The position numbers and the translations under genes are program-made. A stretch of 62,506 nt of DNA, counting the filler, from an uncultured bacterium (GTDB taxonomy: Bacteria > CAYJOG01), in NCBI GenBank assembly GCA_964371695.1. It is 9 parts of 9 records of this genome, joined end to end, with 100 filler letters (N's around TTAATTAATTAA, not from the genome) between each part and the next. Parts side by side here need not be neighbours in the genome. Positions count along the whole stretch, not along the records: positions 14,011 to 20,905 come from CAYJOG010000154.1; 8 more parts are not named here. One strand, 5' to 3'. The stretch's first letter is position 1, and each line of letters starts with the position of its first letter. Under the pieces are notes generated by a model. The model was not told the DNA's origin. It made no database searches and saw only the letters and a list, made by a program, of their open reading frames with translations. Below, piece after piece: positions 13,911 to 40,748 of this stretch.

Positions 13911-14092
13911 NNNNNNNNNNNNNNNNNNNNNNNNNNNNNNNNNNNNNNNNNNNNTTAATTAATTAANNNNNNNNNNNNNNNNNNNNNNNNNNNNNNNNNN
14001 NNNNNNNNNNCCCTGGGACCAATCGCCATGGAGGGCAGTGGGCAGGCGGGAGCAGGAAGTCGGAAGTGCCGGAAATTTGGAAAACACCATTT

Positions 14093-14139
14093 CCCTCTCC
14101 CCTCTGGGGAGAGGGTGGTCCGTAGGACCGGGAGAGGGG
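14093..14139 (-). repeat. boxC-like composite palindrome, downstream of DUF559 gene
   Basis: Minus strand reads CCCCTCTCCC-GGTCC-TAC-GGACC-A-CCCTCTCCCC-AGA-GGGGAGAGGG. Confidence 0.85.
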
Positions 14140-14150
14140 TCAAACAAAAA

Positions 14151-14516
14151 TCACACCTTTTTTCTCTCCAAAACTTGTTCAGCGATTGCCTGCAACACGC
14201 TCTGTGTCCTCGCCATCACGTCATGGTTAAAAGCCCGCAAGACAAAAATCCCCCGTGAGGCCAAAAAATCTTCCCGCTTTCGGTCATGGGCAAGACCTTC
14301 GGCGGAAAGATGCTGACTGCCGTCAACTTCCACCGCCAGGGCCAGTTCGGGGCAATAAAAATCAAGCACATACCCTTCAATGACGTATTGACGACGAAAC
14401 TTCACCCCCAGCAGGTTGTGTCTGCGCAAATGCCCCCAGAGGAGTTTTTCGGCCATCGTGGATTCCCGTCTGAGCTGGCGGGAAAAAGCCAAGGGCTTGG
14501 CAGCGTATTTGGGCAC
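14151..14516 (-). CDS. DUF559 (Vsr-like PD-(D/E)xK) endonuclease domain protein
   Basis: 'RQLRRESTMAEKLLWGHLR', 'KFRRQYVIEGYVLDFYC', 'LAVEVDGSQH' and 'DRKREDFLASRGIFVLR'. Confidence 0.9.
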   Translation of the reverse strand: MPKYAAKPLAFSRQLRRESTMAEKLLWGHLRRHNLLGVKFRRQYVIEGYVLDFYCPELALAVEVDGSQHLSAEGLAHDRKREDFLASRGIFVLRAFNHDVMARTQSVLQAIAEQVLERKKV

Positions 14517-14560
14517 AAAAGTATTGTGGGGGAAAAAACTAAGGTGTTACCTATATTTAG

Positions 14561-14607
14561 CCCCTCTCCCGGCACTCCGTGCCACCCTCCCCCCAAAGGG
14601 GGGAGGG
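14561..14607 (+). repeat. boxC-like composite palindrome, upstream of DUF559 gene (inverted relative to 14093-14139)
   Basis: CCCCTCTCCC-GGCAC-TCC-GTGCC-A-CCCTCCCCCC-AAA-GGGGGGAGGG. Confidence 0.85.
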
Positions 14608-14722
14608 AAAAATAGGGGCCTTTTCTTTTTCCAGCTCCCAACTCCCAACCGCTAACCGCCAACTTCCAGCCCGCCCGTTTGTTTCCTGTCCGGCGACGGG
14701 CTAGGATGACGCCTGCGCGCTC

Positions 14723-15085: not shown

Positions 15086-15092
15086 ATCGTAT

Positions 15093-15163
15093 TGCGGGAT
15101 CGTCTAACGGTAGGACACCGGGTTCTGGCCCCGACAGTCTAGGTTCGAATCCTAGTCCCGCAG
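15093..15163 (+). tRNA. tRNA-Gln (CTG)
   Basis: Acceptor TGCGGGA/TCCCGCA, D-arm gtctaacggtaggac, anticodon loop ttCTGgc, T-loop ggttcgaatcc. Confidence 0.93.
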
Positions 15164-15167
15164 CCCT

Positions 15168-15242
15168 GGCCCATTGGTCTAGTGGTCATGACGTCAGATT
15201 CTCAGTCTGAAAACCGGGGTTCGATTCCCCGATGGGCTGCCA
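15168..15242 (+). tRNA. tRNA-Glu (CTC)
   Basis: Acceptor GGCCCAT/ATGGGCT, anticodon arm tcaga-ttCTCag-tctga, T-loop ggttcgattcc, encoded CCA. Confidence 0.95.
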
Positions 15243-31506: not shown

Positions 31507-31556
31507 CCCCTCACCCGGCGCTACGCGCCACCCTCTCCCCATAAAGGGGAGAGGGG
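31507..31556 (+). repeat. solo boxC-like composite palindrome inside the ABC operon
   Basis: CCCCTCACCC-GGCGC-TAC-GCGCC-A-CCCTCTCCCC-ATAAA-GGGGAGAGGGG. Confidence 0.85.
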
Positions 31557-40070: not shown

Positions 40071-40342
40071 TGCTCTCTCCCTGAGGGAGAGGGCATTTCA
40101 GGATAATTTTCCTAAAAAACAATACAGGCTTTCAAGAACGGGGCAGATGCCCACAAGCCTTTGCCCTCTCCCTTAGGGAGAGGGCAGCCGAGGGTTGAGC
40201 ACAGCGAAACCCGAGGCGGGTGAGGGGGATAAGGAATGAAGGGCAATGAACTCGGTTTTTGATCCACCGGGCTTTCCCCCTCACCCGCCCGTAACCTCAC
40301 TCCGTTCGGTTACGGCCTGCCCTCTCCCTGAAGGAGAGGGCA
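40071..40342. repeat. cluster of three boxC-like palindromes downstream of second DUF559 gene
   Basis: Hairpin only at 40071-40095; full copy on minus strand at 40162-40228; full copy on plus strand at 40276-40342. Confidence 0.85.
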
Positions 40343-40352
40343 AGTCGGTTAA

Positions 40353-40748
40353 TCAGATTTTTTCTGATGCGGCACCTGCGGATTGCCCCCCTTTTCGGGC
40401 TTCGACAACCCGCCAAATTTCTTCCAGTACCGATTCAGTTCGGCACAACACGTCGTTATCCCAAAAACGGATGATTTTTATCCCACGGTCCCAGAAAAAG
40501 TTTTCCCTCTTCTGGTCTTTTTGCAGTTGTTTTTCTTCCAGATGCTGACCACCATCCAGTTCCACACCCAGCGCCAGTTCTTCACAATAAAAATCCAGGA
40601 TGTACGGCGACACGGGGTGTTGGCGGCGGAACTTGACCCCACCCAGTCGCCTGTTTCGCAACAGAAGCCATAAAAGCTCTTCTGAATCGGTCAGTCTCCC
40701 CCTTAGCTCCCGCGCATAGGCCAAAGTTCTGGGATGAACAGGGGACAT
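40353..40748 (-). CDS. DUF559 endonuclease domain protein, second paralog
   Basis: 'ARELRGRLTDSEELLWLLLRNRRLGGVKFRRQHPVSPYILDFYC' and 'VELDGGQH', 'IIRFWDNDV'. Confidence 0.92.
   Translation of the reverse strand: MSPVHPRTLAYARELRGRLTDSEELLWLLLRNRRLGGVKFRRQHPVSPYILDFYCEELALGVELDGGQHLEEKQLQKDQKRENFFWDRGIKIIRFWDNDVLCRTESVLEEIWRVVEARKGGQSAGAASEKI

Follow-up and report, generated by a model that had tools for sequence, protein, structure and literature searches.

A DUF559 nuclease gene framed by BoxC-type repeats: a candidate selfish cassette in an uncultured bacterium

A DUF559 gene between inverted BoxC-type arms

A 62,506-nt stretch of DNA (the window) from the metagenome-assembled genome (MAG) of an uncultured bacterium (GCA_964371695.1) contains, at 14090–14610, a gene of the DUF559 nuclease family that is enclosed by two inverted copies of a structured repeat. 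Each copy, or arm, consists of a G/C-rich pyrimidine-purine hairpin, a variable mini-hairpin and a mirror-repeat third strand, which by its letters is the build of the published BoxC/PIT/TMECO intrastrand-triplex motif. The feature is real and not a product of chance. The same anatomy recurs with DUF559 homologs of many phyla, beside which the repeat is enriched; gene and repeat co-occur among Pseudomonas genomes, the repeat variant of a genome matches that of its resident gene, residues of the active-site type are conserved, and insertion polymorphism reveals that arms and gene are inserted and lost as one piece. We lean, with reserve, towards a reading as a selfish cassette in which DUF559 would be the cognate structure-specific nuclease of its own BoxC-type arms, with binding, cleavage and a role in mobility as its putative activities.

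The DUF559 open reading frame (ORF; 14151–14516, minus strand) encodes 121 aa from a GTG start and lies between two inverted 47-nt elements, one 11 nt past its stop codon and the other 44 nt before its start; an earlier note on this DNA had placed the elements there, and direct reading confirmed it. The downstream arm comprises the outer hairpin CCCTCTCCCC-TCT-GGGGAGAGGG (14093–14115), a single T in plus-strand reading (14116), the variable mini-hairpin GGTCC-GTA-GGACC (14117–14129), which is loop 2 of the triplex motif, and the third strand GGGAGAGGGG (14130–14139, plus strand). This last block is an exact mirror of the purine arm at 14106–14115 and complementary to 14561–14570. The upstream arm reads, on the plus strand, a C-rich third-strand complement CCCCTCTCCC (14561–14570), the variable mini-hairpin GGCAC-TCC-GTGCC (14571–14583), a single A (14584) and the outer hairpin CCCTCCCCCC-AAA-GGGGGGAGGG (14585–14607). 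The outer hairpins were recovered by direct reading, repeat search and folding, the mini-hairpins by direct reading and folding, and the third strands by direct reading.

Both compensatory stem changes listed in the earlier note are correct at the locus. The downstream mini-hairpin stem GGTCC/GGACC, present in 10 of the 68 mini-hairpins of the genome, is replaced upstream by GGCAC/GTGCC, which occurs there a single time, and the upstream outer hairpin carries a compensated T-A to C-G change relative to the downstream one, with its own third strand unchanged (one mismatched triplet). That note did not contain the observation that the 10-nt run beside each hairpin mirrors the purine arm (exactly downstream, at 9 of 10 positions upstream), which is the signature of a triplex motif. 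The arms thus share with TMECO a pyrimidine/purine hairpin with a short loop, a mirror third block and many intergenic copies, the triplex itself being predicted.

The whole cassette (14090–14610) is bounded by an 80-nt inverted repeat, to which the repeat search extended the arms (14090–14169 and 14531–14610, 76% complementary) and which takes in the last 19 nt of the 3′ end of the DUF559 ORF. The consensus of the copies in the genome suggests that the cassette ends lie about 11–14 nt further out. As single-stranded DNA (ssDNA), the arms fold into both predicted hairpins and leave the 10-nt G- or C-run unpaired, with z-scores of −3.2 to −4.0 and 0 or 1 of 200 shuffles folding equally well. 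The loose hairpin pattern gave five matches in the window versus 0.00 expected from 100 shuffles. A simple scan found no promoter at the cassette and no terminator-like T-run at the arms; the sole terminator-like site lies within the DUF559 ORF, and the count of such sites is within shuffle expectation. An Rfam search of the arms returned no family and just one sub-threshold chance match.

Repeat doublets and DUF559 paralogs in the genome

The genome (672 contigs, 3.4 Mb, 61% G+C) is 83% complete with 2.2% contamination and is the sole genome of its class and phylum in the species collection searched. A count of the strict hairpin gave 326 over both strands, or about 163 sites because the motif is palindromic. 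A looser hairpin pattern has 271 sites, and the full arm of hairpin, loop 2 and third strand no fewer than 186; these copy numbers are underestimated, because 73 of the 271 loose hairpins (27%) lie within 150 bp of a contig end, a zone that makes up 5.9% of the genome, which indicates that the repeats break the assembly. Loop 2 measures 3 nt (57 copies), 12–14 nt (71 copies) or 32–35 nt (54 copies). A mini-stem of at least 4 bp forms in 68 of the 71 mid-sized loops, with 11 different stem sequences, compared with a mean of 25% and a maximum of 39% in chimeric controls that joined halves from different copies; the compensation described for the cassette therefore holds genome-wide.

At least 32 gene-free inverted (L-R) doublets, in two families and with 78–136 nt between the outer hairpins, were identified. 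Taking the ORF and about 16 nt (9–19 nt of leader) out of the cassette gives such a doublet. The 11-nt spacer between stop codon and arm (14140–14150, minus strand) matches the inner end of gene-free doublets, the AT-rich 44-nt leader (14517–14560, minus strand) aligns with them save for its last 9–19 nt, and homology resumes 0–1 nt past the DUF559 stop codon. On the doublet of contig C392, for example, the 5′ flank of the cassette gene corresponds to positions 8–95 and its 3′ flank, directly after the stop, to positions 96–159. The DUF559 gene, in a step beyond the earlier note, is the centre of a repeat doublet that has many gene-free copies. Contigs from four sequencing runs were compared with the cassette locus and contained no clean empty site. 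A joint 14139→14556 was considered as an empty site and rejected, as it is found on a single contig of low likeness (7 other letters, side 29), which is most likely another gene-free copy. In one run the DUF559 part lacks coverage, yet no contig spans it, and this was likewise not taken as an empty site. The sequencing runs listed for this DNA were 12 DNA runs, with no RNA run among them. Five back-to-back pairs with outward third strands and 92–96 nt between hairpins were also seen (contigs C226, C95, C18, C79 and C265); their interiors are different and G+C-rich, and the C79 and C265 copies, which are identical over the compared stretch, may be duplicated contigs or a recent copy.

Four DUF559 paralogs with 49–64% identity are encoded in the genome, as tblastn and the Pfam profile agree. 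Three of these, on contigs C154 (the cassette described above), C145 and C565, are framed on both sides by the same arm architecture, with the hairpin followed by the third strand in the upstream arm and the third-strand complement followed by the hairpin in the downstream arm; gene-bearing doublets are thus 3 of at least 35. All four paralogs lie 36–70 bp from a hairpin, and 2.05% of the genome is within 150 bp of one. Two GIY-YIG genes are located 1.6–2.0 kb from the nearest hairpin. A RAYT relative was considered as the framed gene and rejected: the framed gene is DUF559, and the three Y1_Tnp genes (RAYT/IS200-type) of the genome are 2.2–7.6 kb from any hairpin. The window contains a second DUF559 paralog (40353–40748, minus strand, 131 aa, 49% identical to the first), which has ileS and an aldehyde dehydrogenase gene as its neighbours. 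Beyond its stop codon, at a distance of 12 nt, begins a complete gene-free doublet (40164–40340) that belongs to the second repeat family and carries a long 32–35-nt hairpin in loop 2. An imperfect solo hairpin is found at about 40072–40094.

Repeat enrichment beside DUF559 homologs across phyla

The earlier note had proposed to look for enrichment of the motif near DUF559 genes of other genomes. When the four paralogs were used to scan one genome per species, 573 relatives were confirmed, and the best 80 loci were taken further; these span Pseudomonadota, Chloroflexota, Verrucomicrobiota, Planctomycetota, Bacteroidota, candidate phyla and one Bathyarchaeia archaeon, and place DUF559 in many, unrelated genomic contexts. 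Hairpins defined without the motif (perfect 8-bp all-pyrimidine/all-purine stem, loop of 2–10) numbered 130 within 150 bp of the DUF559 match (23.8 kb) versus 46 in the rest of the same loci (345.6 kb), and a BoxC-like regular expression gave 89 versus 31. Hairpin density near the gene is therefore 41–42-fold above that in the rest of these loci, and the enrichment was found as proposed. By the motif-free definition, 66 of the 80 loci have a hairpin within 150 bp of DUF559, of which 46 are framed on both sides, 12 have hairpins upstream alone and 8 downstream alone, and 14 loci have none; with the BoxC-like expression, 31 loci are framed on both sides, 16 on one side and 33 on neither.

The third strand accompanies these hairpins. 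A mirror block within 45 nt was present for 126 of the 130 gene-proximal hairpins, compared with 178 of 2600 in a shuffled control, and lay on the gene side only (82), the far side only (27), both sides (17) or neither (4). For the 128 asymmetric arms, a mirror repeat fitted better than a direct repeat in 104 cases and worse in 6, with 18 ties, from which we conclude that the two hairpin arms and the third strand covary three ways across phyla.

Arms and gene as one insertion unit

In 25 of the 80 loci, the reading frame of DUF559 continues past the match for more than 300 nt without a stop. A Pfam scan of 17 of these 25 identified as in-frame hosts methionine synthase, Ham1/RdgB and five MmeI/Eco57I-type restriction-modification enzymes. 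Two YgiQ-type radical-SAM proteins hold DUF559 in frame at an identical position, and it is also fused to HsdM, MetG and others. The arms of in-frame inserts (L046, L014, L054, L011, L018, L022, L041, L043 and L063) translate to Pro/Gly/Ser-rich linkers.

Relatives with empty sites, which the earlier note had suggested looking for, delimit the unit. Residues 19–687 and 870–1349 of an Anaerolineales MetH align to adjacent bases of the uninterrupted metH of our genome (C88:7239–5179 and 5178–3739), so that the insert is residues 688–869 with both arms included. The RdgB host sequence continues from the outer ends of the arms. Where one Pseudomonas genome has a 1234-nt cluster (cassette plus other repeats, with triplex-motif arms at its ends), three relatives have 10, 10 and 17 nt; their flanks are 86–88% identical, and they have no hairpin at the site. 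As neither metH nor the three Pseudomonas relatives retain a doublet at the empty site, arms and gene arrive together at least sometimes.

Co-occurrence and matching repeat variants in Pseudomonas and other genera

We sampled 101 genomes from Pseudomonas, the genus of one match. A DUF559 match at E ≤ 1e-5 was present in 22 of the 101, full-length in 20; two weak partial matches were scored negative. At least 10 canonical hairpins were found in 17 of the 20 DUF559-positive versus 9 of the 81 other genomes (Fisher p 3e-10, which overstates independence because the genomes are related), and at least one in 20 of 20 versus 17 of 81.

The genome-wide repeat variant matches the variant flanking the resident DUF559. 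Lysobacteraceae DUF559 genes have an CCTTCTCCC / GGGAGAAGG / GGATGAGGG variant on both sides, and a Pseudoxanthomonas genome with DUF559 arms of the CCTTCTCCC variant holds 14 variant and 5 canonical repeats. Canonical/variant counts are 84/6, 70/0 and 12/0 in three genomes with canonical DUF559 arms, and the genome of the window has one variant copy. Many Pseudomonas DUF559 genes (L084–L099) have a conserved small hairpin, CTTCAC ... GTGAAG, directly before the ATG with the ribosome-binding site in its loop, a possible translational control element, and at one locus of this set a run of GTCAGCAA units lies between arm and gene.

In Escherichia coli K-12, the 3′ end of ycjD (L001 8030–8420, fabI-ycjD spacer) leads into a degenerate hairpin. 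About 170 bp downstream follows a complete triplex motif, built like the arms in the window, and a duplicated fragment with the final ~45 nt of the gene separates the two. The ycjD region is present in 3347 of 5426 complete E. coli genomes and absent in about 38%, and one genome without it has a five-gene efflux locus in its place. According to a 2026 paper, ycjD takes the place of eefRABCD, with two or more independent losses inferred (PMC12817139). Presence/absence polymorphism, one of the tests proposed in the earlier note, was thus found in E. coli, in Pseudomonas and in the metH comparison.

The DUF559 protein

The 121-aa product matches Pfam PF04480 (DUF559) with E 3.1e-31 and 107.9 bits (cut-off 20.6). 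Its score for NCBIfam PRK09767 (70.7 bits) is below the equivalog cut-off of 218, so it is not an ortholog-level match to YcjD. A profile of the four paralogs matched PDB 3hrl (Neisseria NGO0050, 'endonuclease-like protein') with E 1e-28 and, weakly (E 0.024), 3r3p, the Vsr-fold homing endonuclease I-Bth0305I. An AlphaFold model for which 41 sequences served as input (mean predicted local distance difference test score 89.6) was ranked by Foldseek closest to 3hrl (E 8.5e-8), then 3r3p (E 1e-4) and 1vsr (E 0.026), with a template-modelling score of 0.79–0.80 on the target for the 3r3p catalytic domain.

F40, R42, D52, D65, G66, H69, D78, R81 and R94 are invariant in all 93 aligned homologs, E23 and E63 are kept in 92 of 93, and 91 of the 93 rows are free of stops. 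We take D52, D65, H69, D78, E23 and E63 to be the Vsr-type active-site residues. The alignment indicates that the family is under purifying selection, and together with the model it makes the protein look active as a nuclease. In the protein tree, the C154 and C145 paralogs are sisters (support 99) and the other two stand apart; phylum labels require 25 changes versus 37.9 in shuffles, which suggests a family that is mostly, not wholly, congruent with taxonomy. DUF559/YcjD is a very widespread nuclease family of which, as far as we found, one member has been studied.

Composition of the window and other features

The window joins nine MAG contigs (C152–C160, in order of falling length) with 100-base linkers (13911–14010 and eight more places), which are runs of N flanking TTAATTAATTAA, a six-frame stop spacer; three further runs of 10 N lie inside contigs, and adjacent segments are not genomic neighbours. 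Position 14011 is the first base of contig C154, and the cassette begins 83 nt into it. Genes for tRNA-Gln(CTG) and tRNA-Glu(CTC) lie at 15092–15242, about 480 nt from the cassette; the ORF start listed at 15182 is consequently not real, and the tRNA genes account for the high-depth bins in the sequencing runs. A solo half-element of the repeat, with CCCCTCACCC, the mini-hairpin GGCGC-TAC-GCGCC and an outer hairpin with an ATAAA loop, is located at 31507–31555.

Proposed mechanism and alternative explanations

Arms that become single-stranded or extruded during replication, transcription or DNA uptake could fold as hairpin or triplex. DUF559 would then bind and nick at or beside the folded arms, and break repair or replication restart by the host might copy or move the arm-bounded unit. 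Acting in trans, DUF559 could do the same for gene-free doublets. A cassette of this kind would work like RAYT on REPINs or Ssn on NTS, with a PD-(D/E)xK enzyme.

Several observations weigh against such a selfish cassette. No near-identical gene-bearing copies are present in the genome, and with paralogs just 49–64% identical the gene-bearing form is not visibly jumping now. No arm lies upstream of the DUF559 paralog at 40353–40748, and E. coli ycjD has arms on its downstream side only. The nine hairpin-rich Pseudomonas genomes among the 81 DUF559-negative ones still carry 10–171 hairpins, which means that repeats persist, or spread, without a resident gene. No target-site duplication was recognised by eye at the RdgB and Pseudomonas junctions, where no systematic search was made. 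Because the upstream arm is compensated in its hairpin and not in its third strand, the Watson-Crick hairpin seems more constrained than the triplex, and the taxonomy-congruent protein tree fits a mostly vertically kept gene. We know of no strand-transfer chemistry for a PD-(D/E)xK nuclease alone. Finally, the DUF559 protein VsrA of Caulobacter is read by its authors as a very-short-patch mismatch-repair nuclease tied to a cytosine methylase (PMC12907096).

An unlikely alternative is a homing-type parasite, in which DUF559 would cut the centre of gene-free doublets and be copied in by repair via the 60–80-nt arm homology, the doublets spreading otherwise. It would account for the ORF and ~16 nt being the sole difference between gene-bearing and gene-free doublets, for a homing endonuclease catalytic domain (3r3p) as second-best structural match, and for BoxC-rich genomes without DUF559 (9 of 81 in Pseudomonas). 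It is harder to reconcile with a gene in just 3 of the 35 or more doublets of the genome, with DUF559 genes that have degenerate arms in 3 of the 20 Pseudomonas genomes, where only 1–2 hairpins exist overall, and with empty sites in metH and three Pseudomonas relatives that hold no doublet.

The precise in-frame inserts of arms and gene (metH, ygiQ-type radical SAM, rdgB and MmeI-type), which indicate recent or recurrent mobility, and the patchy distribution within Pseudomonas (22 of 101) render it improbable that DUF559 is a domesticated Ssn-type host nuclease. Such an enzyme would cut BoxC arms in single-stranded or incoming DNA and modulate transformation, recombination or repair with no mobilisation, the flanking repeats being a relic of a mobile past. 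This idea draws on a layout and statistics that match those of Ssn/NTS, a system that was shown in Neisseria to control transformation, on the largely taxonomy-congruent protein tree, on a gene that is syntenic and single-copy in several Pseudomonas genomes with 32–310 hairpins, and on TMECO loci being reported as rearrangement hotspots (PMC4666352).

We consider it very improbable that DUF559 is an ordinary Vsr-like mismatch-repair or restriction-type nuclease that happens to lie in repeat-prone intergenic DNA, with arms unrelated to the protein. The published interpretation of Caulobacter VsrA as a very-short-patch repair enzyme (PMC12907096) and the DNA methylases or restriction enzymes among the in-frame hosts point that way, but a coincidental neighbourhood is at odds with the 41-fold positional enrichment across phyla, the two-sided framing in 46 of 80 loci, the co-insertion of arms with the gene, the match between repeat variant and the arms of the resident gene, and the distance of other nuclease and transposase genes of the genome from the repeats.

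It is scarcely credible that the arms travel with the gene as signals for its expression (terminator, insulator or mRNA stabiliser): stable hairpins do stand directly past the stop and before the leader, and Pseudomonas copies have an extra conserved hairpin around the ribosome-binding site, but the scan gave no terminator-like T-run or promoter at the arms, Holder et al. (PMC4666352) summarise earlier work in which PIT elements had no promoter or terminator activity, and signals that serve a single gene could not account for 186 or more arms, 32 gene-free doublets and a mirror third strand.

Beyond the selfish cassette itself, DUF559 and BoxC could conceivably form a pan-prokaryotic, self-contained mobile system in which a Vsr-fold nuclease takes an intrastrand DNA triplex, formed by a hairpin and its mirror third strand, as its recognition structure; we put this forward tentatively, as a possibility that we regard as rather doubtful. 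If true, it would explain the origin, the spread and the genome-instability effect of BoxC/PIT/TMECO repeats, which have been known since the 1990s, including why their loci are rearrangement hotspots, and the unit between the arms would be able to lodge in the reading frame of essential genes with no need for splicing.

Comparison with known systems

The repeat and the protein family are already known, and so are small nucleases paired with a hairpin repeat of their own (RAYT, Ssn); the DUF559-BoxC pairing is new as far as our literature search shows. No literature link of DUF559/YcjD to BoxC or triplex motifs was found in a search made mostly at the level of titles and beginnings of abstracts, which did not cover the supplementary gene table of Holder et al. 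(this may list ycjD). BoxC/PIT/TMECO repeats have been recognised for decades in E. coli and more than 260 genomes, are not known to have a partner protein, a function or a traced origin, and the DUF559 family may be the missing protein partner. The link across phyla makes the function of both testable with one 120-aa protein and oligonucleotides of 40–60 nt.

The resemblance to BoxC proposed in the earlier note is right. Like the arms in the window, BoxC/PIT/TMECO repeats have a G/C-rich pyrimidine-purine hairpin, a purine third strand and two loops, and they are multi-copy and intergenic and frequently come as inverted pairs, of which there are two types. Holder et al. (2015; PMC4666352) report 23 TMECO copies in E. 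coli MG1655, five inverted pairs belonging to two types, and the motif in more than 260 genomes; the triplex forms in vitro, the motif is tied to genomic instability and its loci are rearrangement hotspots. That paper reports no associated mobility gene and states that transposase or integrase remnants were 'never found' beside the motif (PMC4666352), whereas the arms described here frame a nuclease gene. A further difference from TMECO is loop 2, which in our genome often holds an extra covarying mini-hairpin (12–14 nt) or a long hairpin (32–35 nt).

Transposons with terminal inverted repeats, together with their miniature derivatives, and the palindromic elements of Rickettsia combine terminal inverted repeats, abundant gene-free short derivatives and tolerated in-frame insertions into proteins. 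The DUF559 cassette resembles the former in its 80-nt inverted repeat (76%) and in gene-free doublets that equal the cassette minus the ORF, but no known transposase was found in the cassette, the sole ORF of which is DUF559 and not of the DDE type. The homing endonuclease I-Bth0305I (3r3p) has a related catalytic fold, and 'ShiLan', an in-frame insertion with a hidden endonuclease (PMC11855218), is paralleled by the DUF559 inserts of MetH, YgiQ-type proteins, RdgB and MmeI-type enzymes, which are likewise nuclease-bearing and readable in the host frame. Unlike both, the DUF559 cassette has no intron or intein context and is intergenic in the window, it has structured repeat arms, and many gene-free copies exist. 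The single conserved target or intron/intein setting of homing endonucleases was not found either: the cassette in the window is intergenic, and the contexts of the 80 loci are many and unrelated.

The analogy to RAYT/REP loci drawn in the earlier note is apt in layout. Inverted doublets are the replicative unit of the RAYT/REPIN system, the gene is flanked by its cognate repeats, and several repeat families occur per genome (Bertels and Rainey 2011, PMC3116915); inverted doublets, flanking by a cognate repeat family and different families in one genome are features of the DUF559 cassette as well. RAYTs belong to the HUH Y1 transposases, which act on ssDNA by a covalent mechanism, and the DUF559 protein is unrelated to them in fold. 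The DUF559 gene lies in the doublet centre, and its cassette can insert as a whole, in frame, into genes.

A parallel in layout and numbers is Ssn with its NTS/SRM repeat, where a hairpin repeat found throughout the genome likewise stands on either side of the gene for a small single-domain nuclease. Chenal et al. (2025, PMC11893778) report at least one repeat at 71% of ssn loci and repeats on both sides at 42%, close to 66 of 80 and 46 of 80 for DUF559, and in both systems genomes rich in the repeat usually carry the gene; ssDNA-specific cleavage by Ssn has been demonstrated, and it controls transformation in Neisseria. The two differ in fold (GIY-YIG, PF01541, in Ssn versus Vsr-type PD-(D/E)xK, PF04480, in DUF559) and in repeat (a simple hairpin with an oriented flank versus a hairpin with a mirror third strand), and the activity demonstrated for Ssn is a putative one for DUF559. 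If the DUF559-BoxC system is what we tentatively propose, the tool set opened by Ssn would gain a structure-specific nuclease that possibly reads triplexes. RAYT/REPIN and Ssn/NTS would then be joined by a third, independently invented system in which a nuclease is paired with a structured repeat of its own, and this one would be the first of the three to have a triplex-type substrate.

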